Below are positions 1,636 to 56,173 of a stretch of 64,000 nucleotides of DNA, one piece after another (the stretch's first letter is position 1; the number at the start of each line of letters is the position of its first letter). Made by a program: the position numbers and the translations under genes. The notes under the pieces are model-generated. The model saw only the letters and a program-made list of their open reading frames with translations. It was not told the origin of the DNA and searched no databases. Source of the stretch: an uncultured Clostridia bacterium (GTDB taxonomy: Bacteria; Bacillota; Clostridia; TANB77; CAG-508); NCBI GenBank assembly GCA_944386755.1, contig CALXCF010000007.1, forward strand, positions 1,970-65,969, read 5' to 3'.

Positions 1636-2418
1636 TTATCTCATCGCTCTTTCTACTATTTTTCTATTCATTCCCAAAACTCTTGCTAATTGTGTTTTTG
1701 TAGTACCTTTTATAATTTCTAATTTCTTTATTTTTTCATTTCTTATTTCTTTACTATATGCACGTAAATCTCTTACATTATTGATTTCTAAGAGTTTTAA
1801 AATTTTTTCTTTTACTTTTTCATCTGATAAATTTTCAATCATTTCGAATTCTATTTCATCATTTATTTCTTCTTTTTCATTACTGTGAAAACTTATAAAT
1901 TTTTTTATTGCATCTCTTTGATTTTTACCAAACAATGAAAGAATAGGTTTTATATCCACAATTTCACTATTATTTGTAATAAAATCTCTGTAACTGCTCC
2001 ATTTATAACTATCTATTTTTGATATTCCTGCTCCCAATGGATTTCTATGAACATATTTGCATACATTAATTAAATATTCCCTCGTTTCAACATTTTTACT
2101 TAGGAATCTATTTTGAAATAAATGTCCCACTTTTTCATATTTTTTTGCAAAATAGCTGGAATAAGCAATGGCTAAACTTTGTATTGCTTTTGAAATTTGC
2201 TCTTCCTTATCATATATAACAAGATGTGTATGATTACTCATTAGACAATACGCATATAGTTTATATTGATATTTTTCTTTAGTTTCTTGAATTTCTTTAA
2301 TAAATTTTTTATAATCTTGTTCATCATAAAATATATCTTGCTTATCGTTGCCTCTTAAAATAATATGATAAACTTTAGTATTACTAATTTGTCGTGCCGA
2401 ACGGGGCATACACTTCAC
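1636..2418 (-). CDS. REP-associated tyrosine transposase (RAYT) / IS200-like HUH Y1 transposase with C-terminal HTH
   Basis: MPRSARQ..YHIILRGN.., HUH motif SNHTHLVI, catalytic Tyr motif KYVHRNPL, C-terminal HTH-like TQLARVLGMNRKIVERA. An alternative ATG lies at 2409. Confidence 0.85.
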   Translation of the reverse strand: MKCMPRSARQISNTKVYHIILRGNDKQDIFYDEQDYKKFIKEIQETKEKYQYKLYAYCLMSNHTHLVIYDKEEQISKAIQSLAIAYSSYFAKKYEKVGHLFQNRFLSKNVETREYLINVCKYVHRNPLGAGISKIDSYKWSSYRDFITNNSEIVDIKPILSLFGKNQRDAIKKFISFHSNEKEEINDEIEFEMIENLSDEKVKEKILKLLEINNVRDLRAYSKEIRNEKIKKLEIIKGTTKTQLARVLGMNRKIVERAMR

Positions 2419-8360: not shown

Positions 8361-8379
8361 CTTATTTCCCTCCTTCTTT

Positions 8380-8464
8380 TTGACAGGGGACACACCTTTA
8401 CCTCTTGGTCACTTCCACTCAGTTTAAGGAATGTCCCCTCCCCTCGTGAATAGGTGATTCGCCC
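8380..8464 (-). repeat. GBX-RP element copy 1 (85-nt SD-proximal structured repeat, subfamily A)
   Basis: ttgacaggggacacacctttacctcttggtcacttccactcagtttaaggaatgtcccctcccctcgtgaataggtgattcgccc. Confidence 0.9.
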
Positions 8465-8487
8465 ATTTTCTAATTACTTTACTATTT

Positions 8488-9435
8488 TTAATCTTCATCT
8501 TTTGCAAAATCCAATCCTAATGAATGTAGTTTTGCAGTTACTTCGTCAAATGATTTTTTACCTAGATTTCTAACTTTCATCATATCCGCTTCTGTTTTGT
8601 TAGTTAAATCTTCTACTGTTGCAATACCAGCTCTTTTTAAGCAGTTAAATGATCTTACAGATAATTCTAGTTCTTCTATTGACATTTCTAAAACTTTTTC
8701 TTTTTTAGATTCTTCTTTTTCAATCATAACTTGTGTATTTTTTGTAGCTTCTGATAGGTCTATAAATAATTCTAAGTGACCTGTCATTACTTTTGCAGCT
8801 AAACTTAATGCTTCATGTGCTTTTAAGCTACCATCTGTCCATACTTCAATAATCAATTTATCATAGTCTACCATTTGTCCAACTCTAGTGTTTTCAACTT
8901 GATAATTAACTTTCTTTACTGGTGTGTATATTGAATCTATTGGAAGTACAGATATGTCTTGATTTTCTTTTTTATTTTTTTCAGATGAGTTATATCCTCT
9001 TCCTCTATCAGCTGTCATTTCCATTTTTAGGCTTCCACCTTGTGAAACTGTAGCTATATGTAATTCAGGATTTAAAATTTCAACTGTTCCATCTGTTATG
9101 ATGTCACTTGCTGTAACTTCTCCCTCACCTTTGAAATCAATTCTTAATATTTTTTCTTCATTCTCGTTAAATTTTAGTCTTACATTTTTTAAGTTTACTA
9201 TGATTTCTGGTACGTCTTCTACAACATTTGGTATTGTAGAGAATTCATGTAAAACTCCATCTATTTTTACGCTTGTTATGGCACATCCTGGAAGTGATGA
9301 AAGTAATATTCTTCTAAGAGAGTTTCCTATTGTTACTCCATAACCTCTTTCTAATGGTTCGCATACAAATTTTGCATAATTGTTTGCATCATTAACTTCT
9401 AGACATTCAATATTTGGCTTTTCAAATTCTATCAT
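8488..9435 (-). CDS. rpoA: DNA-directed RNA polymerase subunit alpha
   Basis: [10 protein letters not shown].., [15 protein letters not shown]-terminal domain [13 protein letters not shown]. Confidence 0.95.
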
Positions 9436-10157: not shown

Positions 10158-10185
10158 TTTATATTTTACTCCTTTCTCTCTTTTT

Positions 10186-10270
10186 TTGACAAGGGACACA
10201 CCTTACCTTTTGGTCTTTCCCACTTGGGCTTAAGGAATGTCCCTTACCCTTATGAGAAAATGATTCTCCC
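10186..10270 (-). repeat. GBX-RP element copy 2
   Basis: ttgacaagggacacaccttaccttttggtctttcccacttgggcttaaggaatgtcccttacccttatgagaaaatgattctccc. Confidence 0.85.
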
Positions 10271-10297
10271 TTGTTTTATTTCGTCAATTTTTGAACT

Positions 10298-10693
10298 CTA
10301 TACCCTACGTCTTTTTGGTGGTCTACAACCATTATGTGGTATTGGTGTTACGTCTTTTATAGCACTTATTTCTAGACCTGCTGTTTGAAGTGCACGGATT
10401 GCAGCTTCTCTACCTGAACCAGGTCCTTTTACAAATACTTCTACTGTTTTTAATCCATGTTCCATAGCAGCTTTTGCAGCTGTTTCTGCTACTTGACCAG
10501 CAGCATATGGTGTGCTTTTTCTAGAACCTTTGAATCCTAATCCTCCAGCACTTCCCCATGAAATTGCATTTCCTTGTGTATCTGTAATTGTAACTATTGT
10601 ATTATTGAAACTAGAATGAATATGTGCTGCACCTTTTTCGATGTTTTTTCTATTTCTTCTAGCTACTTTTTTTGTTGTTACATTTTTAGCCAT
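10298..10693 (-). CDS. rpsK: 30S ribosomal protein S11
   Basis: [32 protein letters not shown]... ATG 10693 follows AAGGAGGAAAG. Confidence 0.95.
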
Positions 10694-10785: not shown

Positions 10786-10910
10786 TAAATTGATTAAAAG
10801 TAGTAAGATGTGCATTTTTGAAATGGATTACAAGCCGAAGGTGTACATATGTACATCGAGGTTTGGAATACATTACGAAAATGTGCAGATTGCTGCTTTC
10901 AATCGATTTA
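10786..10910 (+). repeat. LH element copy A (125-nt imperfect hairpin abutting the rpsM stop)
   Basis: Arms taaattgattaaaagtagtaagatgtgca.. and ..tgtgcagattgctgctttcaatcgattta around the apex ggtgtac-atat-gtacatc. Near-identical to 18131-18259. Confidence 0.85.
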
Positions 10911-10911
10911 G

Positions 10912-11283
10912 TTATGCTTTTTTGCTTTTGCTAACCAACTTTCTAGGACCTTTTCTTGTTCTAGCATTAGTTTTTGTTCTTTGACCTCTTACTGGAAGAC
11001 CTTTTCTATGTCTTAGTCCTCTATAACATCCAATTTCAGTAAGTCTTTTGATGTTAAGAGCAACTTCTCTTCTTAAATCACCTTCAACAGTATATGATTC
11101 ATCAATTACTTTTCTGATGTCATTTACTTGTTCGTCTGTTAAATCTTTAACTCTAGTATCTGGATTGATTCCAGCTTTTTCTAAGATTTTTCTAGAACTT
11201 GATACTCCTATACCATAGATATATGTAAGTCCTATTTCTACTCTTTTTTCTTTAGGTAAGTCAACTCCTGCTATACGAGCCAT
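10912..11283 (-). CDS. rpsM: 30S ribosomal protein S13
   Basis: [26 protein letters not shown]... ATG 11283 follows GGAGGTG. Confidence 0.95.
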
Positions 11284-11469
11284 GTTTTTTTGCACCTCCA
11301 TTGATTTTTTTATAATTTTTGGTTGTCCTTTATTTTTAAAGGTGAAATGCCACTGGTGTTTACCCCAGTCTCTTTAAAACTTCCAGACATATATATAAAC
11401 ACAAATCTGATATTAGAACTTTTCGTTCTCAGCCGCTACCAAAATTTGTGTTATGAACTTTTTTAAAGA

Positions 11470-11583
11470 CTATCCTTGTCTTTGTTTGTGTTTAGGGTTT
11501 TCACAAATAACTCTAATCACACCTTTTCTTTTTATTACTTTGCATTTGTCACACATTTTTTTAACTGATGGTCTAACTTTCAT
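11470..11583 (-). CDS. rpmJ: 50S ribosomal protein L36
   Basis: Hand translation gives [37 protein letters not shown]. The RBS GAGGAGGTG is upstream. Too short for the ORF track. Confidence 0.9.
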
Positions 11584-11605
11584 TTTTTGCACCTCCTCTT
11601 TTCTA

Positions 11606-11683
11606 AAGACAGGGGACACTCCTTTTTCTTTTCGTCATCCACTCGGGTTAAGGAATGTCCCCTCCCCTTATGATTAAGTGTTT
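11606..11683 (-). repeat. GBX-RP element copy 3 (divergent distal end)
   Basis: aagacaggggacactcctttttcttttcgtcatccactcgggttaaggaatgtcccctccccttatgattaagtgtttac. Confidence 0.8.
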
Positions 11684-11744
11684 ACATTTATTTTTAGTCC
11701 TCTGTACTATATATATTTTTTTTGGGTTAATTTCTAACTTTATC

Positions 11745-11963
11745 CTATTTAGCTCTCCAAGTAATTCTTCCTCTAGTTAAATCATATGGAGAAAGTTCTA
11801 CTTTTACTTTATCTCCTGGTAATATTTTGATATAATTCATCCTTAGCTTTCCTGATATATGTGCTAATATTTGATGTCCATTTTCAAGTTCTACTTTAAA
11901 ATTTGTATTTGGTAAAGTTTCAACAACAGTACCCTCTACTTCAATAACATCCTCTTTTGCCAT
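11745..11963 (-). CDS. infA: translation initiation factor IF-1
   Basis: [30 protein letters not shown].., 72 aa. Confidence 0.95.
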
Positions 11964-12064
11964 TATCTCAACCTCCTTAAAGAGCTATTTTTCTAAGTTT
12001 CTTTCTCTTTTTTTGTGCAAAATAGGGCTATTTTGCATTATAACTACTATAGTATACACTATTT

Positions 12065-12835
12065 TTAAAGTATTGTCAATATTTCTGGCTCTTTTTCTGT
12101 AATTAAAATTGTATTTTCATAATGTGCTGCCAAACTTCCATCTTCTGTTATAATTGTCCAACCATCATCTAATTGTAATATATTGGGTTTTCCTTGTATT
12201 ACCATAGGTTCTATTGCAAGTGTCATACCAGGTTCTAACCTTATTCCTCTTCCTGCTTTTCCATAGTTTGGTATTCCTGGATCTTCATGCATTTCTCTTC
12301 CTATTCCATGACCTTGGAATTCTCTTACTACACTATATCCTTGTGAATGTACATATTCTCCAATTCTATGTGATACATCACCAATTCTATATCCTGGTTT
12401 TGCAAATTTTATTCCTTCAAAAAATGCCTGTTTTGTGACTTGTACTAATCTTTCAGCTTCTTTTGATGCTTTTCCTACTATAAAAGTTCTTGCTGCATCT
12501 CCATTAAATCCATTTTTTAGTGCTACTGTATCAATACTTACAATGTCACCTTCTCTAATTACTTTATTTTTAGATGGTATTCCATGTATAACTTCATCAT
12601 TTATTGAGACACACAAGGTTGCTGGATATGGTGGAACTCCTTTTATTCCTATATTATATCCTTTTTCTGCTGGTATTGCTCCTAAGCTTCTCATTGTTTT
12701 TTCTGCAATTTGGTCTAGCTCCCATGTTGTCATTCCTGGTTTTATTCTTTTTTCTAGTTCTTGATATGTTAGGGCTACTACTTTGCATGCTTCTTTCATT
12801 AGTTCTATTTCTTTTTTTGATTTTATTGTTACCAA
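12065..12835 (-). CDS. map: type I methionine aminopeptidase
   Basis: TIKSKKEIELMKEA.., metal ligands D..D..H..E..E pattern, 256 aa, TTG start. Confidence 0.9.
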   Translation of the reverse strand: MVTIKSKKEIELMKEACKVVALTYQELEKRIKPGMTTWELDQIAEKTMRSLGAIPAEKGYNIGIKGVPPYPATLCVSINDEVIHGIPSKNKVIREGDIVSIDTVALKNGFNGDAARTFIVGKASKEAERLVQVTKQAFFEGIKFAKPGYRIGDVSHRIGEYVHSQGYSVVREFQGHGIGREMHEDPGIPNYGKAGRGIRLEPGMTLAIEPMVIQGKPNILQLDDGWTIITEDGSLAAHYENTILITEKEPEILTIL

Positions 12836-12904
12836 TTTTCTCGTCTCCCTTTTTTTGAAAAATAATTTCTACTAGATTTTAAAATGTTACTAAATTTTAT
12901 TTTT

Positions 12905-13148
12905 GTTACAATCCACAGTCATTTTATACATTCTTTATAGCTAGGATATTATATTAAATAGTTTTGCAGTACCGCGTAGCACCCAAACGAGCTTTGTATA
13001 AAGCGAGTGCGATTGGAGCAACTTTCTTTCTATTAAAAGAAAAATGAATTTTTCTTTTAATAATAGGTCTGTTGCGACAACAAGGTACAAAAAATATTTA
13101 ATAAAATATCCTAGCTAATAAGAAATTGTTTCAACTATGGATTGTAAC
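12905..13148. repeat. 244-nt palindromic MITE-like insertion between map and adk
   Basis: Outer arms gttacaatccacagt.. and ..actatggattgtaac, inner arms ctaggatatt..aatatcctag, central sub-hairpin tattaaaagaaaaatgaatttttcttttaata. Confidence 0.75.
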
Positions 13149-13159
13149 TTATTTTTCAA

Positions 13160-13816
13160 CTAAAACGCTTTTGCTATATCTTCAGCAACATCCTTACCCA
13201 ATCTATTAATATCTTTGCTTACAACTTCTGTTCTTAAATTCCCTTTTTTTGTATAGTATTCTACTAATGGACTTGTTACATTTAAATAATTTTCAAGTCT
13301 CGCTTCTACTGTTTCTCTATTATCATCTTTTCTTTGTATTAATTCACTTCCACATTTGTCGCAAATTCCTTCGACTTTAGGTGGATTTAATATTAAATTA
13401 TATATTGTTTTACATTCTGGATTTGAGCATATTCTTCTGTTTATTATTCTTTCTATTATTTCCTCTTTTGGTGTAGTTAAATTAACTACCATGTCTACTT
13501 TTCTTCCTTGTTCTGCAAGCATTTTATCTAAAGCTTCTGCTTGTACAACAGTTCTTGGGAATCCGTCTAGTATAATTCCGTTTTTTACATCGTCTTCTTG
13601 TAATCTACTTTTTACTAAATCTATTGTTACATCATCTGGTACTAAATGTCCTTTTGATATATATTTATCCGCTAATTTTCCTAGTTCTGTTTGTTCTTTT
13701 ATGTGTTTTCTAAATATATCTCCTGTTGAAACTTGTGGTATTCCTAATTTTTGTGTTAGTATACCTGCAACAGTTCCTTTTCCTGTCCCTGGTGCTCCTA
13801 GCATTATTATTACCAT
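13160..13816 (-). CDS. adk: adenylate kinase (Zn-lid type)
   Basis: MVIIMLGAPGTGKGT P-loop and a CxxC..CxxC lid (CSNPEC..CDKCG). Confidence 0.9.
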   Translation of the reverse strand: MVIIMLGAPGTGKGTVAGILTQKLGIPQVSTGDIFRKHIKEQTELGKLADKYISKGHLVPDDVTIDLVKSRLQEDDVKNGIILDGFPRTVVQAEALDKMLAEQGRKVDMVVNLTTPKEEIIERIINRRICSNPECKTIYNLILNPPKVEGICDKCGSELIQRKDDNRETVEARLENYLNVTSPLVEYYTKKGNLRTEVVSKDINRLGKDVAEDIAKAF

Positions 13817-13939
13817 ACTTTTTAACACTTCCTTTGTTTTAATTTAGATTAAGTAAATATTTTATATCTTTAAAACATTTAATAATCTTTATCATATTTA
13901 TTATTATTAATACACATGATAAAAATTATTAAAATCTTT

Positions 13940-13993
13940 GTGAACTTAAGATTTTTTCGCATTATTAATAATGTAAAATCATCTTAAGTTCAC
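13940..13993. repeat. 54-nt hairpin between secY and adk
   Basis: 13-bp arms gtgaacttaagat / atcttaagttcac enclosing the palindrome cattattaataatg. Confidence 0.7.
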
Positions 13994-14024
13994 TATATTT
14001 TATTATCTATAACTCACAATTTTC

Positions 14025-15347
14025 TTACTTTTCTAAGAAACCTTTATAATGTCTCATTGCTAATTGTGATTCTAATTGTTGTACTGTCTCTAAAGCTACA
14101 CCTACAACGATTAATATTGATGTACCACCAAAAGCAATGTTTAGGTTTGTAAATCTTAATAGCATTGGAAGTATTGCTATCAATGCTAAGAAAAATCCTC
14201 CAAACCATGTTAATTTTGATATTATTGATGATAAATATTGAGTTGTTGGTTTTCCAGCTCTAATTCCTGGAATAAATCCACCATTTTTCTTGATATTATT
14301 TGATACTTCTGCTGGATTAAATGTAGCATAAGTATAGAAAAATGTGAATCCTATAATTAATAGTAAATAAACAATTGCATTTGCTATAGAATATCCAATT
14401 CCTACATTTGACGTTGATGTAGCAATTGAGAAATTATATAGTCCTGCTAAAAATCCTGTTTGATTTGCTATATCTGGTACAAATATTTGGATTATCATTG
14501 CTGGGAATGTCATAAATGATGAAGCAAAGATAACTGGCATAACTCCAGCCATAGCAAGTTTTAATGGTATATGAGTGCTTTGTGCACCAACCATTTTTCT
14601 TCCTACTACTTTCTTTGAATATTGTACAGGTACTCTTCTTTCCGCTTGTTGTACAAATACAACTCCTGCAACTAAGATTATTGCTCCAATTACTATACCA
14701 ATTGCAGTTAATAGTCCTGTTGTACTAAATCCTGATGCTGGCATAATTAAATTCCACAATGTTACTAATCCACTTGGTAAACCTGATATAATACCAATAA
14801 AGATTAATAATGATATTCCATTTCCTATTCCTTTTGCAGTTATTTGCTCTCCTAACCACATTAGGATGGATGTTCCTGTTACTAATCCTGTAACAACTAA
14901 TGCTCCTGTAAGGAATGAATCATCAACAAATATTCCTGCTGATCTATATGATAAATATAATCCAATTCCTTCTACTAAAGCTAATATAATTGTTAATATT
15001 TTTGTATATTTATTGATTTTTTGTCTTCCAACTTCTCCACCTTCTTTAGTTAGTCTTTCTAAAGCTGGTATTATCATTGCTAAAAGTTGGATTACTATTG
15101 ATGCTGTGATATATGGCGTAATTGACATTGCAAATACTGAGAATCTAGAGAACGCTCCTCCAGATATAATATCAATTAATCCTGCAATACCACTATTATT
15201 TCCCATTGCATCACTTAATGCTATGCTGTCTACTCCTGGTACTGTTATATAACATCCAAATCTGAAAACTACTATTAATAATAATGTATATAATAATCTT
15301 TTTCTAACATCTGGTGTTTTAAATGCATTTTTTATAGTTTTAAACAA
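14025..15347 (-). CDS. secY: preprotein translocase subunit SecY
   Basis: 440-aa polytopic membrane protein in the canonical position between rplO and adk. Confidence 0.95.
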   Translation of the reverse strand: MFKTIKNAFKTPDVRKRLLYTLLLIVVFRFGCYITVPGVDSIALSDAMGNNSGIAGLIDIISGGAFSRFSVFAMSITPYITASIVIQLLAMIIPALERLTKEGGEVGRQKINKYTKILTIILALVEGIGLYLSYRSAGIFVDDSFLTGALVVTGLVTGTSILMWLGEQITAKGIGNGISLLIFIGIISGLPSGLVTLWNLIMPASGFSTTGLLTAIGIVIGAIILVAGVVFVQQAERRVPVQYSKKVVGRKMVGAQSTHIPLKLAMAGVMPVIFASSFMTFPAMIIQIFVPDIANQTGFLAGLYNFSIATSTSNVGIGYSIANAIVYLLLIIGFTFFYTYATFNPAEVSNNIKKNGGFIPGIRAGKPTTQYLSSIISKLTWFGGFFLALIAILPMLLRFTNLNIAFGGTSILIVVGVALETVQQLESQLAMRHYKGFLEK

Positions 15348-15782
15348 TTAAATCACCTCAGCCTTTCCACCTAAAGCTTCGATTGCTTCTTTTGCCTTAG
15401 CTGTAAATTTAACGGCTTTAACGTTTAATTTTTTCTCTAATTTTCCAGTTGCTAAAACAACTATTCCATCATTTATTTTTCCGATTATTCCTTCTGCAAG
15501 TAAAGTTTCTGCTGTTACATCTGTTGCTTGTGATTTATTTAGCATTTTTAATGTTACTTCAGTGTAGTTTTTGCTATTAATGTTATTAAATCCTCTTTTT
15601 GGTAGTCTTCTATATAATGGTGTTTGTCCTCCTTCGAAGCCTCTTCTTACTCCTCCACCACTTCTTGCTTTTTGACCTTTATGTCCTCTTCCTGATGTTT
15701 TTCCATTTCCAGATGCAATTCCACGTCCTACTCTGTTTCTTTTTACTTTTTTTACAGCTGGTTTTAATTCGTCTAGCTTCAT
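15348..15782 (-). CDS. rplO: 50S ribosomal protein L15
   Basis: [42 protein letters not shown].. Confidence 0.95.
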
Positions 15783-15804
15783 TTTCGGTTTTCCCTCCTA
15801 ACTT

Positions 15805-15888
15805 TTGTCAAGGGACTTTTCTTTACCCTAGGGACTTTCCACTCTGCATAAAGAGTTTCCCTTCCCCTTGTGAATAACTGATTCGCCC
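15805..15888 (-). repeat. GBX-RP element copy 4 (subfamily B, degenerate stem)
   Basis: ttgtcaagggacttttctttaccctagggactttccactctgcataaagagtttcccttccccttgtgaataactgattcgccc. Confidence 0.85.
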
Positions 15889-15922
15889 TTGCTTTTTTAT
15901 TCTTTTTTTGTTGTACAATTAA

Positions 15923-16408
15923 TTATACTATTTCTTCTACTTTTTTTCCTCTTTTTTTAGCAACTTGTTCTATTGTTTGCATTGATTTTAATCCTTCTAA
16001 TGTAGCATATACAACATTTCTTGGATTGTTTGTTCCTATAACTTTTGTTCTAATGTTTCTGTATCCAGCAAGTTCCATAACTGGTCTAACGCTTCCTCCT
16101 GCGATAATTCCAGTACCTACTGCTGCTGGTTTTAACATAACTTTTGCACTTCCAAACTTTCCTACATATTCATGTGGTACTGTTGTGTCAACTATTGGTA
16201 CTTCTACTAAGTTCTTTTTAGCTTCTTGGATTGCTTTTTTAATAGCATCTGGAACTTCTGCAGCTTTACCATTTCCAACTCCAACATGACCATTTTCGTC
16301 ACCAACTACAACTACTGCGCTGAAACGGAATGTTCTTCCTCCTTTTACAACTTTTGCAACTCTGTTGATGGCAACTACTTTTTCTTTTAATTCTCTTTTA
16401 TCTTCCAT
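15923..16408 (-). CDS. rpsE: 30S ribosomal protein S5
   Basis: ..[27 protein letters not shown].. Confidence 0.95.
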
Positions 16409-16431
16409 TGGTTTTTGTTTTCCCTCCTAAC

Positions 16432-16791
16432 TTAAAATTCTAAACCGCCTTCTCTTGCAGCTTCTGCTAATTCTTTTACAACTCCGTGATATATGTATCC
16501 ACCACGATCAAATACAACAGATTTGATATTTTTTTCCATTGCTCTTTTTGCAATTAATGCTCCAACTTCTTTAGCTGCTGCTTTATTTGAATGTTTAGTT
16601 TTGATTTCTTTATCTAATGTTGATGCTTGTGCTAAAGTTTTTCCTGCTACGTCATCAATTACTTGTACATATATATTGCTGTTGCTTCTATATACACATA
16701 GTCTTGGTCTTTCAGCAGTTCCAGATATTTTTCTTCTAACACGAATATGTCTTCTTGTTCTTTCCATTTTTCTATCTGTTTTCTTAACCAT
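16432..16791 (-). CDS. rplR: 50S ribosomal protein L18
   Basis: ..[35 protein letters not shown].. Confidence 0.95.
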
Positions 16792-16867
16792 TTTTAATTA
16801 CTCCTTTCTAAAAATTGAGCTATACTATTTATTTATAATAAAATTTTTATTTTTAATTATAATTTGA

Positions 16868-16909
16868 ATTTTGATTCAAAATGTGCATATTGCCGTTTTC
16901 AATCAAAAT
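16868..16909 (+). repeat. LH element remnant (right-arm-like) abutting the rplF stop
   Basis: attttgattcaaaatgtgcatattgccgttttcaatcaaaat resembles cgaaaatgtgcagattgctgctttcaatc of LH copies A and B. Confidence 0.6.
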
Positions 16910-16913
16910 TAAT

Positions 16914-17450
16914 TTATTTACCTGTTTTACCTTCCTTACGTCTAATAACTTCATCAGCATATTTAATACCTTTACCTCTATAAACTTCAGGTGGTCTTTT
17001 TGTTCTGATAACAGCTGCTGTTTGACCAACTAATTCTTTATCAATACCATTAACTATTATAGTATTTGCATTAGGTACATCAAAGCTGATTCCTTCAGGT
17101 GCTTCGAATATAACTGGATGTGAATATCCTAATGTTAAATTTAAGTTATTTCCTTGTTTTACAACTCTATATCCAACACCATTGATTTGTAATTCTTTGC
17201 TATAACCAGTTGTTACACCTATAATCATGTTTTGAATTAATGTTCTTGTTAAACCGTGTAAACTTTTGTTAGCTGGTTCGTCATTTATTCTTTTTAATGT
17301 TATAACATTTTCATTCATTTCCATTGTTATGTTTTTATGAATGTTTCTTTCTAATGTTCCTTTAGGTCCTGTTACAGTAATGTGTTGTCCATCTATTTTT
17401 ACTTGTACTTCTGCTGGTACTGTTATAGGTTTGTTTCCTATTCTTGACAT
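16914..17450 (-). CDS. rplF: 50S ribosomal protein L6
   Basis: MSRIGNKPITVPAEVQVKIDG... The ORF-track extension is repeat-encoded. Confidence 0.95.
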   Translation of the reverse strand: MSRIGNKPITVPAEVQVKIDGQHITVTGPKGTLERNIHKNITMEMNENVITLKRINDEPANKSLHGLTRTLIQNMIIGVTTGYSKELQINGVGYRVVKQGNNLNLTLGYSHPVIFEAPEGISFDVPNANTIIVNGIDKELVGQTAAVIRTKRPPEVYRGKGIKYADEVIRRKEGKTGK

Positions 17451-17472
17451 TTTAGTTTTCCCTCCTTCTTGG

Positions 17473-17556
17473 TTGACAAGGGACACTCTTTTACCCTAGG
17501 GACTTTCCACTCTGCTTAAAGAGTGTCCCTTCCCCGTATGAATAACTGATTCGCCC
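17473..17556 (-). repeat. GBX-RP element copy 5a (subfamily B, perfect 12-bp stem)
   Basis: ttgacaagggacactcttttaccctagggactttccactctgcttaaagagtgtcccttccccgtatgaataactgattcgccc. Confidence 0.9.
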
Positions 17557-17576
17557 TTGTTTTTATTTTCTTTTTT

Positions 17577-17630
17577 CACTTCCACTTAGTTTAAGGAATG
17601 TCCCCTCCCCGCGTGAATAGGTGATTGCCC
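17577..17630 (-). repeat. GBX-RP element copy 5b (distal half only, subfamily A)
   Basis: cacttccacttagtttaaggaatgtcccctccccgcgtgaataggtgattgccc, lying 20 nt from copy 5a. Confidence 0.8.
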
Positions 17631-17658
17631 TGCAATCTTATTTCTTCTATATTTATAA

Positions 17659-18057
17659 TTACCAAACGTAAGCTAATACTTCTCCACCAATTCCTAAAGC
17701 TCTTGCTTCTTTATCTGTTTTTAATCCTTTTGATGTAGAAATAATTGCTACTCCTAATCCATTTAATACTCTTGGTAATTCTTCTTTTGAAGCATATACT
17801 CTTAATCCTGGTTTACTGATTCTTTTTAAACCATCAATTACTCTTGTTCCTTTTTCATCATATTTTAATGTTATTCTGATAATACCTTGTGTATCATCTT
17901 TTATTTCTTCAAAAGATTTTATATATCCTTCTTTATATAATATTTCAGCTATTCCTAATTTCATATTTGATGCTGGAATATCAACTGTTTTATGTTTTGA
18001 ACTATTTGCATTTCTAATTCTTGTTAACATATCTGCAATTGGATCTGTAGTATTCAT
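17659..18057 (-). CDS. rpsH: 30S ribosomal protein S8
   Basis: ..[26 protein letters not shown].. Confidence 0.95.
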
Positions 18058-18085
18058 TTAGTTACTAACCTCCTTTTCTTTCTTT

Positions 18086-18108
18086 TTGACAGGGTTAATG
18101 ATTCACCC
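18086..18108 (-). repeat. GBX-RP remnant retaining only both termini
   Basis: ttgacagggttaatgattcaccc equals the TTGACAGGG start joined to the TGATTC(G/A)CCC end of the full element. Confidence 0.65.
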
Positions 18109-18130
18109 TTTTTTTATTTTCATTAATTTG

Positions 18131-18259
18131 TTAAAACTGATTTAAAGTAGTGAGATGTGCATTTTTGTTATTTATTGCAAGCCGAAGGTGTACTATTGTA
18201 CATCGAGGTTTGAAATAAATAGCGAAAATGTGCAGATTGCTGCTTTTAATCTGTTTTAA
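18131..18259 (+). repeat. LH element copy B (129-nt imperfect hairpin abutting the rpsN stop)
   Basis: ttaaaactgatttaaagtagtgagatgtgca..gccgaaggtgtac-tatt-gtacatcgagg..tgtgcagattgctgcttttaatctgttttaa. Confidence 0.85.
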
Positions 18260-18445
18260 TTACCAGCTGGCTTTCTTAACCCCTGGAATCTCTCCCTTAT
18301 GAGCTAATTCTCTAAAACATACACGGCATATACCATATTTTCTAATATATGCATGTGGTCTACCACATAATTTACATCTATTATATTCTCTAGTTTTATA
18401 TTTTTGTGGTCTTGCTTGTTTTACTTTCATTGATTTTTTAGCCAT
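18260..18445 (-). CDS. rpsN: 30S ribosomal protein S14 type Z (zinc-binding)
   Basis: 61 aa, CKLCGR..CRVCFR. Confidence 0.95.
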
Positions 18446-18483
18446 AGTTTACTCCTTTCTTATCACAACTATATTATGTTTGC

Positions 18484-18606
18484 AAAATTAATTTAAAACA
18501 AGTATAACTAGGCAGTCAAGCTAAAAAACCGGAATCGTACTTTGTGTACGATGAGGATTTTTTATGCGTAGACTAACGACGTTAGACGCAGTTTAAAATT
18601 AATTTT
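18484..18606 (+). repeat. LH-like long hairpin overlapping the rplE stop
   Basis: Arms aaaattaatttaaaac.. and ..gtttaaaattaatttt. The apex ccggaatcgtac-tttgt-gtacgatgagg has the same architecture as LH copies A and B. Confidence 0.7.
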
Positions 18607-19138
18607 TAAAAGGCATTCCTAACAACTTTAACAACTCTCTTGATTCTTCATCAGTTTTAGCTGTTGTTACGAATATAATATCCATACCTCTTAATTTGTC
18701 TACTTTATCATATTCTATCTCAGGGAATATTAATTGTTCTTTAACTCCCATTGAGTAGTTTCCTCTTCCATCAAATGAGTTATTAGAAACTCCTCTAAAG
18801 TCTCTTACTCTTGGAAGTGCAACATTAAATAATTTATATGCAAAGTCATACATTTTGTCTGCTCTTAAAGTTACTTTACATCCAATGTTTGCTCCTTCTC
18901 TTAGTTTGAATGCTGCAATTGATTTTTTTGCTTTTGTTATTACTGGTTTTTGACCTGTAATTTGAGCTAAATCATTCATTGCATTTTCTAATGCTTTAGG
19001 ATTTTCTTTTAAATCTCCTAAACCAATGTTTATAACGATTTTGTCAAGTTTTGGTACTTGCATAATTGATTTATAATTGAATTTTTTCATTAATGCTGGG
19101 ATTACTTCATTTACATATTGTTCTCTTAATTTTTCCAT
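18599..19138 (-). CDS. rplE: 50S ribosomal protein L5
   Basis: ..[36 protein letters not shown].. Confidence 0.95.
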
Positions 19139-36080: not shown

Positions 36081-36156
36081 TGGAGCCACTAAGCAGAATC
36101 GAACTGCTGACCTACGGGTTACGAATCCGTTGCTCTACCAACTGAGCTATAGTGGC
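36081..36156 (-). tRNA. tRNA-Thr (anticodon CGU), CCA encoded
   Basis: Hand-folded cloverleaf of GCCACTATAGCTCAGTTGGTAGAGCAACGGATTCGTAACCCGTAGGTCAGCAGTTCGATTCTGCTTAGTGGCTCCA. It has a 7-bp acceptor stem, a GTTCGATTC T-loop and the anticodon loop TTCGTAA. Confidence 0.9.
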
Positions 36157-40975: not shown

Positions 40976-41677
40976 TTATTTTAATAATTTCAAATTTGGT
41001 GTATTTTTCTTATTTTTTGTTACACTTCCCTCACTTTGCTTATTTTCTCTATTTTCTTTGAATAATAATGCAAAAGTTTCATTTTGTTTTTCTAATATTT
41101 TTGCTATGTTTATTCCGTCTATTCTTTGCCTTTCTTTTATTGTTTCTATGTTTTCTATTATTGTCTCTTGTTGATTTTTCATTATATTTTGTTCTTTTTT
41201 CATTTGTTTCATTTCTTTTCTCAATGCTGTTTGTCCTTTTTGTAGTTTTTTAATGTCTTGTTTCATTTCTTTTTGCTCTTCTTTGATGTTTTTGATGTCT
41301 TGCTTCATTCCTGCCATTTCTTGTTTCATCTCTGCTTGACCTTCTTGCAAATCTTTGATGTCCTGTTTCATTCCTGCCATTTCTTGTTTCATCTCTGCTT
41401 GACCTTCTTGCAAATCTTTGATGTCCTGTTTCATTCCTGCCATTTCTTGTTTCATCTCTGCTTGACCTTCTTGCAAATCTTTGATGTCCTGTTTCATTTC
41501 TTTTTGTTCTTCTTGAAGATTTTTGATGTCTTGTCTCATTTCTTTTTGTCCTTCTTGGATATTTTTGATATCTTGCTTCATTTCAACTTGGTCTTCTTTG
41601 ATTTCATTTACATCCTGTCTTACACCTTTAACTTCTGAATGAATATTTCCAAGTATTGATAAAATCTTCTCTTCCAT
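40976..41677 (-). CDS. coiled-coil tandem-repeat protein (MKQDIKxLQEGQxE repeats)
   Basis: 233 aa, with three identical 21-aa units flanked by degenerate units. Confidence 0.7.
   Translation of the reverse strand: MEEKILSILGNIHSEVKGVRQDVNEIKEDQVEMKQDIKNIQEGQKEMRQDIKNLQEEQKEMKQDIKDLQEGQAEMKQEMAGMKQDIKDLQEGQAEMKQEMAGMKQDIKDLQEGQAEMKQEMAGMKQDIKNIKEEQKEMKQDIKKLQKGQTALRKEMKQMKKEQNIMKNQQETIIENIETIKERQRIDGINIAKILEKQNETFALLFKENRENKQSEGSVTKNKKNTPNLKLLK
41306..41494. repeat. perfect 63-bp x 3 tandem repeat inside the CDS
   Basis: The unit cattcctgccatttcttgtttcatctctgcttgaccttcttgcaaatctttgatgtcctgttt is repeated exactly at 41306, 41369 and 41432. Confidence 0.95.
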
Positions 41678-46267: not shown

Positions 46268-46347
46268 TAAAAACAACTATTGATTATAAAAAATTGGTCC
46301 CCCTTTTAAGGATATCCACCAATTTTTCAAATCAATAGTTGTTTTTA
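46268..46347. repeat. TGC element copy 1 (identical TTGGTCCCCC core within a variable outer stem)
   Basis: taaaaacaactattgatt-ataAAAAAATTGGTCCCCCTTTTAAGGATATCCACCAATTTTTc-aaatcaatagttgttttta. Confidence 0.9.
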
Positions 46348-47056: not shown

Positions 47057-47200
47057 GTGGTCAGTTTAGGGACAGGTTCGGACTGACCATTTTTGGCTAC
47101 TTTGGGGACGGCACTTTTTTTCCAGATATATAATTACTTTAAGGTCCGTCCCTAAATCCCTAAAAACAGGGATTTTTAGGACCGTCCCCTAATCCCTGTT
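47057..47200. repeat. composite GTCCC-box element (two two-box units)
   Basis: GTGGTCAGTttaGGGACaggttcggACTGACCAtttttggctactttgGGGACGg ... cCGTCCCtaAATCCCTaaaaacAGGGATTtttaggaccGTCCCCtAATCCCTGtt. Confidence 0.9.
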
Positions 47201-48653: not shown

Positions 48654-50132
48654 ATGGAAAATACTAGTTTGTATCAAGACATCGCAAAAAGAACAGATGG
48701 TGATATTTATGTAGGGGTGGTAGGTCCTGTTCGTACTGGTAAATCTACTTTTATAAAGAAATTCATGGATTTATTAGTAATTCCAAACATAGAAAATAAC
48801 TACAAAAAAGAACGTGCAAAAGATGAATTACCACAAAGTGCTGGTGGCAAAACAATAATGACAACAGAGCCTAAATTTGTTCCAAATGAGGCTGTTGAAA
48901 TAACTTTAGATAATAATCTAAAATTTAGAACTAGATTGGTTGATTGTGTTGGATATTTAGTTGATAATGCTATTGGTTATTTAGAAGATGATATGCCAAG
49001 AATGGTTAAAACACCTTGGTCTGATGAGGAAATTCCTTTTGAAACTGCTGCTGAAATTGGAACTAAAAAAGTTATTGAGGAACATTCAACTATTGGCATT
49101 CTAGTTACAACTGATGGTAGCATTACAGATATTCCAAGAGATGACTATATTAAAGCTGAAGAAAGAGTTGTATCTGAATTAAAGGCATTAAACAAACCTT
49201 TTGTAATTTTACTAAATTCATATTCTCCTGAATCTGATTATGCAAAAGAATTGGCCCAAAACTTAAGCGAAAAATATCAAACAACAGTTATTCCAATTAA
49301 TTGTGAATATCTAACAATTGATGATATTAATGAAATATTTTCAAAAATTTTATATGAATTTCCAGCTAGTCAAATTCGTATAAAATTTCCTAAATGGATT
49401 GACGGTTTAGATTTTAGCCACCCATTAAAAGCTGAATTATATAAAGAAATTAAAGATGCATTTTTAGATATTAGAGTTTTGAAAGATGTTTCTAATTGTG
49501 TAAATAAAATATCAACTACTCAAATAATTTCACAAACTAAGATATCTAATATCCAACTAGGTTCTGGTAATGTAAATATTGATATTACTCTAAAAGAGGA
49601 ATTGTTCTATCAAGTATTATCAGAAATTACAGAAGTTCCTGTTTCCAATGAAGGTGACTTATTTAGCATAATTTCAGAACTTTCTAAAACTAAGAAGAAA
49701 TATGACAGAATATCTTATGCATTAGATGAAGTTGAACGTAAAGGCTATGGTATTGTTACTCCTTCAATTGATGATTTAGTTTTAGAAGAACCTGAGATGA
49801 TTAAACAAGGTTCAAGGTTTGGTGTAAAATTAAAAGCAACTGCTCCTTCAATTCATTTAATAAAAACAAATGTAGAAACTGAAGTTTCACCTATTGTAGG
49901 CTCAGAAAAACAATCTGAAGAATTAGTAAATTACTTATTATCTGAATTTGAAAGTAATCCAAAAGAAATTTGGGAATCCAATATTTTTGGAAAGAGTTTG
50001 CATGAGCTTGTAAATGAAGGTTTACAAACTAAACTTGCTAAAATGCCAGAAGAGGCACAAATTAAACTTCAAGAGACTTTAGAGAGAATTGTTAATGAAG
50101 GTAGTGGAGGATTAATTTGTATAATTCTTTAA
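48654..50132 (+). CDS. spoIVA: stage IV sporulation protein A
   Basis: ..IYVGVVGPVRTGKSTFIKKFMD.. Walker A, 492 aa, C-terminal ..GSGGLICIIL. Confidence 0.95.
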   Translation: MENTSLYQDIAKRTDGDIYVGVVGPVRTGKSTFIKKFMDLLVIPNIENNYKKERAKDELPQSAGGKTIMTTEPKFVPNEAVEITLDNNLKFRTRLVDCVGYLVDNAIGYLEDDMPRMVKTPWSDEEIPFETAAEIGTKKVIEEHSTIGILVTTDGSITDIPRDDYIKAEERVVSELKALNKPFVILLNSYSPESDYAKELAQNLSEKYQTTVIPINCEYLTIDDINEIFSKILYEFPASQIRIKFPKWIDGLDFSHPLKAELYKEIKDAFLDIRVLKDVSNCVNKISTTQIISQTKISNIQLGSGNVNIDITLKEELFYQVLSEITEVPVSNEGDLFSIISELSKTKKKYDRISYALDEVERKGYGIVTPSIDDLVLEEPEMIKQGSRFGVKLKATAPSIHLIKTNVETEVSPIVGSEKQSEELVNYLLSEFESNPKEIWESNIFGKSLHELVNEGLQTKLAKMPEEAQIKLQETLERIVNEGSGGLICIIL

Positions 50133-50204
50133 GAGGGATTTAGGGGACGTTCCTAAAAATCCCTCCTTTTAGGGATTTTTAGGAACGTCCCCCTAATCCC
50201 TGTT
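50132..50204. repeat. two inverted GTCCCC-box hairpins between convergent genes
   Basis: AGAGGGATTtaGGGGACGTTCCtaaaAATCCCTCcttttAGGGATTtttaGGAACGTCCCCctAATCCCTgtt. Confidence 0.9.
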
Positions 50205-51405: not shown

Positions 51406-51479
51406 GTTCATAATTGTTTCAAAAAAATTGGTCCCCCTTTTAAGGATATCCACCAATTTTTTTGAATTCAATTATGAAC
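51406..51479. repeat. TGC element copy 2
   Basis: gttcataattg-tttcAAAAAAATTGGTCCCCCTTTTAAGGATATCCACCAATTTTTttgaatt-caattatgaac. Confidence 0.9.
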
Positions 51480-56026: not shown

Positions 56027-56173
56027 TTGTTACTAGTCAGCTTTTAAATTAGATTGCCCTGTTTAACCGTAATTGTTTCAAAAAAATTGGTCCCCCTTTT
56101 AAGGATATCCACCAATTTTTTTGAAATCAATTACTGACGCGGGCTTGAAATTAATATAGCTGACTAGTAACAA
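56027..56173. repeat. TGC element copy 3 with an extra 15-bp outer stem
   Basis: ttgttactagtcagc ... gtaattgtttcAAAAAAATTGGTCCCCCTTTTAAGGATATCCACCAATTTTTttgaaatcaattac ... gctgactagtaacaa. Confidence 0.9.

Follow-up and report, generated by a model that had tools for sequence, protein, structure and literature searches.

An orientation-locked family of hairpin modules that folds on the strand antisense to the adjoining gene

The two long hairpins that follow rpsM and rpsN in the window (the whole 64,000-nt stretch of DNA that was analysed), which we refer to as copies A and B, belong to an ancient, widespread family of orientation-locked hairpin modules of ~125 nt, and the fold under selection is that of the template strand, antisense to the adjoining gene. 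Collected by search pattern and by nhmmer in genome loci and metagenome loci, the family numbers more than 260 copies, from MAGs of gut Clostridia and from cultured Desulfovibrio and Pseudodesulfovibrio, a patchy distribution by phylum. Nearly all Clostridia copies lie in ribosomal-protein, EF or RNAP operons, and a 'gene, hairpin, gene, hairpin' layout is repeated in the str, S10, spc and alpha operons; in Desulfovibrio the element adjoins ordinary genes, and the Desulfovibrio-type copies, at 65% GC, keep the architecture unchanged (78-94 bits). An Rfam search, proposed in a preliminary description of this DNA, found no match to the family.

Copies and relatives in the window

The window holds two full copies, one remnant and two diverged relatives. 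Pfam matches and stop-codon positions bore out the coordinates and gene contexts first given for the hairpins, with S13 (10912-11301), S11, S14 (18260-18445), S8, L5 (18599-19138) and L6 (16914-17486) all on the minus strand. Copy A (10786-10910, 130 bits on the plus strand and 65 on the minus) has its strong-folding strand on plus, antisense to rpsM and rpsK, and its base lies 1 nt from the rpsM (S13) stop TAA (10912-10914, minus strand); the two conserved helix halves, TGTGCATTTTT and AAAATGTGCA, occupy 10809-10819 and 10878-10887, and its apex spans 10835-10861. Copy B (18131-18259, 131 bits on plus and 63 on minus) directly abuts the rpsN (S14) stop TAA (18260-18262, minus strand), with helix halves at 18156-18166 and 18225-18234 and its apex at 18182-18208. 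The two had been called near-identical; both are long hairpins, sharing 87% identity. The remnant noted beside the rplF stop is real: at 16868-16909 on the plus strand, 4 nt from that stop (16914-16916), an outer left arm is fused to a right half (AAAATGTGCATATTGCCGTTTTCAATCAAAAT), with similarity to the family at a blastn E of 0.006 and 21.7 bits by the family model.

The diverged relative D (18482-18608, plus strand) overlaps the rplE stop (18599-18601) and has kept the outer stem, the middle being replaced. Its apex, CCGGAATCGTAC-TTTGT-GTACGATGAGG, is of the family type, as in copies of loci L125 and L016, and family model R1 scores it at 30.5 bits (E 1.5e-4) on plus and 12.7 bits on minus; blastn found no similarity between D and the family. 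The kinship first proposed for D stands, as does the overlap with the stop, but the strand asymmetry is absent (-34.3 vs -32.2 kcal/mol). The hairpin outside the operon, first marked at 59581-59666 and here called F (59558-59688, plus strand), is related distantly, at 35 bits (E 1e-5) on plus and 17 on minus; its apex, GAGGCGTGC-TATT-GCACGTTGA, is similar to the L016 subfamily, its outer stem extends over the final codons and TAG stop (59668-59670) of a SAM-methyltransferase gene on the minus strand (59668-60552), and its asymmetry is small (-34.5 vs -29.1). The short hairpin E (23682-23740, minus strand), earlier taken for an opposite-orientation relative, sits within the long L23-L2 spacer with no adjoining stop codon and has a family-like apex only, on the sense strand (28.6 bits on minus, 19.2 on plus); it is a weak relative, possibly in opposite orientation, and its membership of the family is uncertain.

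Strand-specific folding and covariation

The preliminary description had counted about 7 plus-strand wobbles to 1 A:C in copy A and 8 to 0 in copy B, and had proposed selection on the strand antisense to the ribosomal genes, with a comparison of fold energies on both strands. On the family structure the counts are 8 G:U and 0 A:C in A, and 9 and 0 in B. Folded as RNA, A reaches -56.8 kcal/mol on the plus strand vs -24.7 on the minus, and B -62.7 vs -25.9; the asymmetry persists with DNA parameters (A, -24.7 vs -10.3; B, -28.4 vs -16.9). Every copy has an advantage of 20-38 kcal/mol on the antisense strand, and the RNAalifold consensus is -40.8 kcal/mol there vs -11.9 on the mRNA strand. Across 132 distinct copies G:U outnumbers A:C by 974 to 52, or 650 to 52 once columns fixed by the search pattern are left out, with G:U in excess in 131 of the 132; all 27 copies retrieved independently of the search pattern show the same bias. 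Compensatory changes on both sides were seen at 35 of 47 stem pairs in these 132 copies, 93.7% of cells are paired as against 74.9% in shuffles, and none of 500 shuffles matched the real alignment on any covariation or pairing measure. Individual wobbles are conserved as well: U22·G114 is kept in 111 of the 132 copies, a tandem pair (U29·G107/G30·U106) is likewise conserved, and several wobbles take identical positions in both phyla, that is, in genomes of 30% and 65% GC, with C·A mismatches at those same positions in the mRNA copy. The operon of A and B also carries another repeat family, linked to a RAYT-like transposase, that is more stable when folded as the sense strand; this opposite asymmetry means that regional mutation bias does not explain the antisense bias. 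The family-wide G:U bias and the consensus fold strongly support the proposed selection on the antisense strand.

Placement, turnover and known systems

Orientation is almost invariant. Between co-directional genes, each of the 79 copies found by pattern is antisense; so are 155 of the 157 that nhmmer found in genome loci and 106 of 107 in metagenome loci, the three exceptions facing genes 645-1012 nt away. The low-GC (Clostridia) sets yielded no sense-oriented copy adjoining a gene and no convergent or divergent context. Placement beside stop codons, first noted from a handful of hairpins, extends to the family: the model end falls within -14 to +2 nt of the ORF end in 130/153 genome and 94/101 metagenome copies, and the hairpin base lies within a few nt of an upstream stop (TAA, TAG or TGA) in roughly 85-93% of more than 250 copies, 0-6 nt past the stop of the gene to which the module is antisense. 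Among Desulfovibrio-type copies one of the three stops stands 2 nt ahead of GGCTTCC in 8 of 11. The next gene follows at a median distance of 86 nt, some spacers being just 16-30 nt, and a few copies instead directly follow an intrinsic terminator, namely the T-box terminator of a 5' leader. At locus L081 two copies are oppositely oriented, each antisense to its own gene, so orientation follows the gene and not replication; here and at L018 the element, at the ORF 3' boundary, faces incoming convergent transcription. We found no known family of bacterial repeats or RNAs for which the literature describes this placement rule, post-stop with an antisense-strand fold.

Occupancy of these sites turns over, with different subfamilies, remnants and tandem arrays at one and the same site: full, short and remnant states are all present at orthologous sites, stop-proximal remnants analogous to that at 16868-16909 occur in L003, L006 and L008, both subfamilies are present at the same sites, and tandem arrays are found in L120, L104, L051 and L083. 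Element identity tracks flanking-gene identity only weakly. Copies within a locus are no closer (0.674) than copies between genomes (0.664), and so give no sign of recent bursts. Searches around the copies found no clear case of a target-site duplication or clean empty site, no partner gene (transposase, recombinase or other) adjoining any copy, no long element bearing both arms as its ends and no conserved promoter upstream on the folding strand; terminator features (U-tract, GC-rich) were not found, and a terminator scan called neither A nor B.

Integron attC sites are among the closest known systems: imperfect inverted repeats of 57-141 nt, they lie directly after, and often overlap, the stop of the preceding ORF in a single orientation, are recognised by structure over sequence, and are active as the folded bottom strand, antisense to the ORF. 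Post-stop position, one orientation, an antisense folded strand and gene-hairpin alternation all recur in our family; however, the R''/R' core sites (RYYYAAC...GTTRRRY) are absent from its alignment, its conserved blocks are internal, its genes are core ribosomal genes in conserved order rather than cassettes, and no integrase was seen. To our knowledge integrons are essentially absent from Firmicutes. REPINs, ~100-nt long hairpins formed from two inverted REPs, resemble it as multi-copy extragenic hairpins thought to be processed strand-specifically as ssDNA, and the window does contain a RAYT-like gene; but the RAYT-like (HUH) genes (window 1636-2418, and L031 4164-4919) are flanked by the other, GGGGAC-type family, and none was found flanked by the antisense hairpins, whose folding strand is, in co-directional operons, the leading-strand template and whose orientation tracks the gene, not replication. 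ERIC/IRU, Correia/NEMIS and RUP elements share the form of ~100-200 bp imperfect palindromes making one long hairpin with A/T (TA) termini, co-transcription with flanking genes, and presence/absence and decay at orthologous sites. As far as we know, insertions of the ERIC, Correia and RUP families can have either orientation and lie at various places between genes. Each of these families is confined to a genus or a family, whereas the antisense hairpins are orientation-locked, stop-anchored and spread over two phyla, with covarying stems and conserved internal blocks, and lack the target duplication, listed as TA for those families (PMC2229807). The L17 downstream element is likewise structured and lies just 3' of a ribosomal-protein gene, its strand having been assigned by G-U pairs (PMC2864571); it and other r-protein 3'-UTR or intercistronic motifs fold on the mRNA strand and are single-copy and gene-specific, whereas our family folds on the opposite strand and is multi-copy, after many different genes.

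Candidate modes of action

The three mechanisms first put forward, namely antisense RNA, a hairpin-dependent mobile element active through this ssDNA strand, and a weakening of the mRNA fold, are all still live, the last being unlikely on its own since the mRNA of Desulfovibrio copies retains folds of about -60 to -82 kcal/mol. We lean weakly, at a probability of roughly 0.4, towards a non-coding, non-autonomous mobile or recombination element that would be handled as a folded single DNA strand. The strand-specific fold, orientation lock, stop anchoring, site turnover and want of a conserved promoter on the folding strand support it; the missing partner gene, target duplication, clean empty site, long element and recent burst count against it. 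In co-directional operons, moreover, the folding strand is the leading-strand template, a strand that HUH-type ssDNA transposition would not be expected to find exposed. We know of no DNA transposase that can sense a gene-following orientation, nor of a DNA-level mechanism that recognises in-frame stops of all three kinds, and fixed-position G·U pairs, including the 5'-UG-3'/3'-GU-5' tandem, are more typical of RNA.

In a possible, somewhat less likely alternative, the element would work as RNA transcribed from the antisense strand, as a multi-copy structured RNA bound by a conserved protein or as a direction-specific barrier. The barrier would fold only in transcripts that run into the gene from the 3' side, whether spurious antisense transcripts or convergent read-through, causing pausing, RNase III cleavage or decay, and sense transcription would pass since the mRNA copy is crippled. 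G-U content is a standard criterion for assigning the transcribed strand (PMC2864571), and the dominance of G·U at fixed positions in two phyla, the meeting of ORF 3' boundaries with convergent transcription in L018 and L081, the enrichment in the most highly transcribed Clostridia operons and the retention of structure at seemingly vertically inherited sites all fit such an RNA. Against it stand the want of a conserved promoter on that strand, with spacers as short as 16-30 nt, of terminator features and of an Rfam family, and a barrier would need neither anchoring within 0-6 nt of the stop nor conserved sequence blocks.

It is improbable that the family is an ordinary ERIC/Correia-type palindromic MITE with no strand-specific activity of its own, in which host selection against mRNA hairpins in essential operons purges sense-oriented or stop-distant copies and favours transitions disrupting the stem in the mRNA. 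Size, hairpin shape, A/T-rich termini, co-transcription and deletion decay do match bacterial MITEs, and for ERIC the effect on upstream mRNA is reported to depend on orientation and to be influenced by ribosomes nearby (PMC2229807). Yet selection on the mRNA stem alone would accept any mismatch, whereas the 974 G·U pairs are far in excess both of the 337 other mismatches and of the 52 A·C, which means that the stem is positively maintained on the antisense strand; Desulfovibrio copies have an mRNA stem that has not been neutralised, no target-site duplication accompanies the copies, and harmless locations (convergent or divergent contexts, sense orientation) are empty in the Clostridia sets.

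A cis-acting element of the sense mRNA, whether a 3' stabiliser, a processing site, a translation-termination or coupling signal or a C-rich Rho-loading site, is less probable still. Its C·A positions would be conserved internal loops, and it would suit the strict sense-relative orientation, the post-stop position within operons, the enrichment in ribosomal-protein operons, the C-rich, G-poor mRNA of copy A (C27:G14, unlike the purine-rich surrounding sense strand) and the residual mRNA fold of about -25 kcal/mol. Intermediates at variable pairs, however, are antisense-strand G·U (for example 9-127, UG 35; 18-118, UG 27; 61-76, UG 20) with A·C at most 4, the sense-strand consensus fold is weak with no alternative structure found, and the element also occurs after the 5'-leader T-box terminator and by ordinary Desulfovibrio genes. 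Strand-biased mutation of a neutral palindrome, such as transcription-associated deamination, is hardly credible even though the DNA here is very heavily transcribed and strongly skewed in GC and AT, being contradicted by the control family, by flanking plus-strand sequence without transition asymmetry (T/(T+C) and A/(A+G) both ~0.7), by wobbles at fixed positions in 30% and 65% GC genomes, and by the expectation that non-template deamination would make wobbles on the mRNA strand, not the antisense one.

Under the favoured folded-ssDNA reading, a putative trans-acting protein would handle the folded strand by a logic like that of attC sites or REPINs, probably recognising three conserved features: the helix UGUGCAUUUUU/AAAAAUGUGCA, which carries the tandem wobble, internal loops of GA type, and the C-G-N-A-G / GUAC-loop-GUAC / GAGG apex. 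The variable stems would need pairing alone. Targeting to in-frame stops would imply either that the element is coupled to transcription or translation, or that its insertions then undergo strong selection. The wobbles would then preserve the template-strand hairpin while the co-transcribed mRNA hairpin stays weak, which may be what makes the module tolerable inside essential operons.

Two repeat families in the ribosomal operon

In this genome of about 30% GC, the minus-strand S10-spc-alpha ribosomal-protein operon (8.4-26.4 kb; Pfam support for S13, S11, S14, S8, L5, L6 and L2) carries two full copies, 87% identical, of the 125-130-nt hairpin family: copy A (10786-10910) lies 1 nt from the rpsM stop (10912-14) and copy B (18131-18259) abuts the rpsN stop (18260-62). 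Both fold far better on the strand antisense to the adjacent gene (here the plus strand, which we refer to as the folding strand) than on the mRNA strand. RNA folding gave -56.8 (plus) and -24.7 kcal/mol (minus) for A and -62.7 and -25.9 kcal/mol for B; DNA parameters gave -24.7 and -10.3 kcal/mol for A and -28.4 and -16.9 kcal/mol for B, and a covariance model of the family scored both at 130 bits on the plus strand and 63-65 bits on the minus strand. The preliminary description had counted the wobble pairs by hand and essentially correctly, as the family structure assigns eight G:U and no A:C pairs to A, and nine and none to B. Its right-arm remnant beside rplF (16868-16909) is a deletion remnant 4 nt from the rplF stop, and its hairpin outside the operon is a diverged relative (F, 59558-59688) that shares the apex and outer stem of the family and extends over the TAG stop of a minus-strand methyltransferase gene. 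The hairpin it placed at the rplE stop is likewise a diverged relative (D, 18482-18608) with the family apex and outer stem, overlapping the stop, but lacks the strand asymmetry, whilst its opposite-orientation relative (E, 23682-23740) does lie in the other orientation but resembles the family at the apex only, so that its membership is doubtful. On the mRNA strand the full copies are rich in C and poor in G (C27:G14 in A, C27:G13 in B), a reversal of the bias towards purines seen on the sense strand of the operon around them, and such a C-rich, weakly structured stretch directly after a stop resembles a Rho-loading site.

The same operon contains a first repeat family, with about 12 copies in one orientation in the ribosomal spacers, built from GGGGACA...UGUCCCC units (8363-8495, 10169-10301, 11584-11708, 15788-15912, 17456-17662, 19475-19599, 19978-20072, 20378-20502, 21792-21929, 22267-22404 and 26319-26456). 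Each copy terminates in the ribosome-binding site of the following gene (GGGGACAUUCC...GGUGUGUCCCCUGUCAAAAAGAAGGAGG), and the spacers have a modular layout of stop, hairpin, first-family unit and ribosome-binding site. These units are more stable on the sense (mRNA) strand (for example -33 vs. -26 and -36 vs. -25 kcal/mol). It follows that the antisense asymmetry belongs to the hairpin family and not to the region, and the opposite asymmetry of the first family excludes regional mutation bias as its cause.

A minus-strand gene (1636-2418) encodes a 260-aa Y1_Tnp protein (IS200-like, RAYT-type HUH; E 1e-14); on either side of it lies a 58-nt inverted repeat of GGGGACG type (1537-1594 and 2571-2628; 98% complementary), and gene and repeats together look like a REP/RAYT unit. 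The GGGGAC core of the first family resembles these bordering repeats, and a homologue of the gene in another genome (locus L031, 4164-4919) has 55-nt GGGAC-type repeats on both sides; because such repeats border the RAYT-like genes in both places, we assign the first family to a REP/RAYT system. The RAYT-like gene of the window was rejected as the mobiliser of the hairpin family, since its bordering repeats belong to the first family, and the hairpin family is not visibly tied to it. Short palindromic repeats outside the operon are probably more REP-like units (46277-46340, 51411-51474 and 56070-56133; 47138-47196, 50131-50204 and 58329-58387): one family is AAAAATTGGTCCCCCTTTTAAGGATATCCACCAATTTTT, the others are GGGACG(T/G)TCC...AAATCCCT doublets.

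Elsewhere in the window, the L23-L2 spacer (about 23626-24183) is unusually long at about 550 nt, and a minus-strand ORF between rplW and rplB (23857-24165, 102 aa) has a good codon score and no Pfam match; an unannotated 69-aa ORF occupies the same place in loci L008 and L009. A tandem repeat array (41148-41651; period 21/42/63 nt; 10 overlapping 126-nt units of 62-90% identity) lies within a minus-strand ORF (40976-41677), and a plus-strand SpoIVA gene (48654-50132) indicates a spore-forming Firmicute.

A fold maintained on one strand

A scan of GTDB species-representative genomes with the pattern TGTGCATTTTT-N48-72-AAAATGTGCA returned at least 117 stretches; the matches listed were mostly gut metagenome-assembled genomes named uncultured Clostridia or Clostridium sp., with several among them in Desulfovibrio caledoniensis and Pseudodesulfovibrio karagichevae (65% GC). 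A metagenome scan supplied a second, independent set of copies. Ten metagenome contigs with an identical S14 protein carried hairpins after L23, L6, S13 or S14, all in one orientation and with the same fold asymmetry. Four pattern matches in viral contigs were chance, non-folding hits, and a phage origin was rejected. The GC-rich, Desulfovibrio-type copies share the architecture and score 78-94 bits against the family model: their outer and middle stems differ wholly in sequence with pairing kept, yet they retain the A/T-rich helix UGUGCAUUUUU/AAAAAUGUGCA and the apex C-G-N-A-G...GUAC-loop-GUAC...GAGG. On the folding strand the hairpin ends read TAAAATTGATT.../...AATCGATTTTA in Clostridia and GGCTTYC.../...GRAAGCC in Desulfovibrio.

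RNAalifold, applied to an alignment of 132 distinct copies, returned a single long hairpin with compensatory double changes in 33/45 pairs. A 47-pair version of the structure had 93.7% of cells paired, as against 74.9% in shuffled alignments and 37-46% with slid partners, and changes on both sides in 35 pairs; none of 500 shuffles matched any of these measures. Watson-Crick pairs numbered 4825 across the 132 copies, with 974 G:U, 52 A:C and 337 other combinations. After removal of the 11 pairs fixed by the search pattern there were still 650 G:U against 52 A:C; G:U exceeded A:C in 131/132 copies, and also in all 27 copies which lacked the pattern and were found by profile search (175 vs. 17). 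Wobble is the dominant state at U19·G117, U22·G114, G53·U83 and the tandem U29·G107/G30·U106, and both phyla share at least U22·G114 and the tandem. The consensus fold reached -40.8 kcal/mol on the folding strand and -11.9 kcal/mol on the mRNA strand, where it was the same hairpin, broken, and not an alternative conserved structure. These data show that pairing is maintained by selection on the strand which templates the neighbouring gene, and that the co-transcribed hairpin is weakened by C·A mismatches at the corresponding positions.

Placement at the ends of translated reading frames

Genes were called with a codon-usage model, which correctly reproduced the operon. The hairpin was antisense to its gene in 79/79 pattern-found copies between co-directional genes, in 155/157 profile-found copies from GTDB loci and in 106/107 copies from metagenome loci; in the three exceptions the facing genes were 645-1012 nt distant. 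In the loci examined, no Clostridial copy lay inside a gene or between convergent or divergent genes. The end of the family model fell at -14 to +2 nt of an ORF end in 130/153 and 94/101 copies, with TAA or TAG at the junctions 15-24 nt ahead of the conserved core, and copies away from ORF ends were mostly later members (second to fourth) of tandem arrays repeating about every 130 nt. The gap from hairpin to next start codon was broad (median 86 nt, interquartile range 48-151).

Clostridial host genes encode almost exclusively parts of the translation or transcription machinery; judged from size and C-terminal sequence, S14, S13, S12, S7, L6, L5, L14, L23, L11, L10, a probable S2, EF-G and rpoC are among them. 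A further group of copies is placed in a 5' leader and not after a stop codon, directly behind the U-tract of a T-box terminator, with a gene of about 1047 aa 74-130 nt further on (in L031, T-box RF00230 at 308-540 and the hairpin element at 565-696); similar T-box contexts occur in L011, L017, L025, L030, L067, L098, L100 and L107.

Hosts of the Desulfovibrio-type copies are ordinary genes, including a helicase-like gene, transporters and SEL1-like genes. At least eight of these copies abut the stop of an opposite-strand gene, and in 8/11 GGCTTCC follows a stop (TAA, TAG or TGA) at a distance of exactly 2 nt. Since all three stops are used and the offset in Desulfovibrio is fixed, a plain DNA target motif cannot explain the placement; by a rough composition estimate, TRRGC-like pentamers would be about eight times commoner intergenically than at stops, yet 8/11 copies are at stops. 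Locus L081 holds two oppositely oriented copies, each antisense to its own neighbour, so orientation follows the gene and not the direction of replication. A GC-rich metagenome copy (L177) is an exception, lying upstream of pstS in the same orientation. Together these observations show that the position of the hairpin goes with the end of a translated ORF, and its orientation with the direction of that ORF.

Orthologous spacers contain full copies, shortened hairpins with the outer stem only, or stop-proximal remnants. Two main subfamilies, AAGATGTGCA...GCAGATTGC and TATATTGTGCA...GCAAGATGC, are each found after S14 and after L6 in different genomes, and are swapped between the S14 and L6 sites within single loci (L101, L103). 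Mean identity was 0.674 for copies at different sites of the same locus, 0.706 at the same site of different loci and 0.664 at different sites of different loci. Copies within a locus are thus no more alike than others, against recent intragenomic bursts or concerted evolution, and element identity correlates weakly with flanking-gene identity, against simple vertical inheritance; the data are consistent with an old family whose members turn over or are replaced at fixed kinds of site. Tandem arrays of 2-5 units (L120, 4643-5033; L104, 4634-4896; L051, 6759-7295; L083, 3699-3961) share the period of about 130 nt, and at the junctions of the inner L120 units there is a short stretch duplicating the S7 gene end (TTTGGTAA), which suggests unequal recombination including the stop-codon region rather than repeated insertion.

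Known element classes and the nature of the hairpin

The hairpin family is nearest in behaviour to integron attC sites and in structure to ERIC-type MITEs and REPINs, but lacks defining features of each. Like attC, it is an imperfect inverted repeat 3' of an ORF, in fixed orientation and folding on the antisense strand; its ends, however, have no AAC/GTT core, unlike the R'' (RYYYAAC) and R' (GTTRRRY) end cores of attC. Arrays of attC adjoin an intI integrase gene and an attI site; the context here is conserved ribosomal operons. Like an ERIC-type MITE (about 100-200 bp with inverted-repeat arms), it forms one long hairpin, but no gene-adjacent sense copy occurred among 157 and 107 copies, whereas ERIC-type elements occur in either orientation. 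Such MITEs have TA termini, a target-site duplication and clean filled and empty sites; the ends here are A/T-rich (TAAA...TTTA), pairing continues for only 2-3 nt past the modelled stem with no evident direct repeat, and remnants, not clean empty sites, were found at orthologous positions. REPINs consist of two inverted 20-40-nt REP palindromes, whilst the arms here contain no self-folding unit and the only local hairpin is the apex; the GTAG tag (REPs carry GTAG or CGTC) is present in some copies only, and a RAYT gene is typically bordered by its own repeat, which in the window and L031 is the 55-58-nt GGGAC type. IS200/IS605-derived (PATE-like) elements have unlike subterminal hairpins and no long terminal inverted repeat, in contrast to this single long hairpin; their fixed tetra- or pentanucleotide 5' of the left end has no counterpart in Clostridia, and the TRRGC-like flank of Desulfovibrio copies coincides with in-frame stops.

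No target-site duplication or clean empty site was convincing. An autonomous parent with the arms as its ends was rejected, as solo arms across about 1.8 Mb of loci were remnants and none lay kilobases apart. The idea, prompted by relative F, that the outer stem is an inverted copy of the gene 3' end also failed, pairing extending about 2.5 nt past the modelled stem as against 2.1 nt in shuffled sequences, and likenesses to a dif/XerC arm, group II intron domain V and a K-turn each failed on inspection of the aligned sequence. Rfam 15 at gathering score matched only a tRNA gene in the window (36084-36156, minus strand), and its E-value mode returned only generic miRNA-precursor hairpin models far under threshold. 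Literature searches with motif strings and for stop-anchored antisense hairpins, incomplete in coverage, found no account of the hairpin family and no description of a stop-anchored antisense-folding repeat.

Our leading, still tentative reading (probability roughly 0.4) is that the hairpin is a non-autonomous module for mobility or recombination, acted on as a folded single strand of DNA. Its behaviour is attC-like, but as the R-box test fails it is not attC. Conserved internal blocks combined with freely covarying stems in two phyla point to a conserved trans-acting partner.

The main rival, somewhat less probable, is that the element acts as antisense-strand RNA, either as a structured antisense RNA or as a barrier which works in one direction only, against antisense or convergent transcription arriving at gene ends. 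Conserved G·U pairing speaks for such a role; against it, promoter and terminator features are missing and the anchoring to stops is left unexplained. No positional enrichment of -10 or -35 elements was found upstream on the folding strand, and a scan for intrinsic terminators (GC-rich stem and U-tract) called neither A nor B on either strand; the outer stems are A/U-rich and the Desulfovibrio copies have no T-run after the hairpin. A passive MITE shaped by host selection alone is improbable, because G·U pairs are far above other mismatches and the mRNA copies in Desulfovibrio are still very stable. An element working in the sense mRNA is more improbable again, given the pairing statistics of the folding strand and the weak consensus fold (-11.9 kcal/mol) and lack of an alternative structure on the mRNA strand.

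With about the same probability as the antisense-RNA role, the family could represent a new class of bacterial element, common to Firmicutes and Desulfobacterota and dependent on an undiscovered partner protein: a structured, conserved antisense RNA or template-strand ssDNA, installed and renewed specifically where translated ORFs end and oriented according to the gene. Such installation would imply that target choice is coupled to transcription or translation, for example through cDNA- or RNA-mediated installation or a recombination site linked to the stop codon.

The family is a clean natural example of a hairpin confined to one strand, is absent from Rfam, and occurs in cultured Pseudodesulfovibrio and Desulfovibrio strains, so the choice between RNA and ssDNA is directly testable. 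REP, ERIC, Correia and similar hairpin repeats of bacteria are generally regarded as selfish DNA, loosely placed, whose effects on mRNA are incidental. The family described here follows near-absolute rules: it is antisense to the gene, lies within a few nucleotides of the stop, be it TAA, TAG or TGA, and has covarying stems and fixed wobbles. In many uncultured gut Clostridia it is concentrated in the operons with the highest expression, and cultured sulfate reducers have it too. To our knowledge no DNA enzyme can recognise an in-frame stop codon, and the placement therefore implies either an unknown transcription- or translation-coupled mode of installation or a host function which purges all other placements; either would be new biology.
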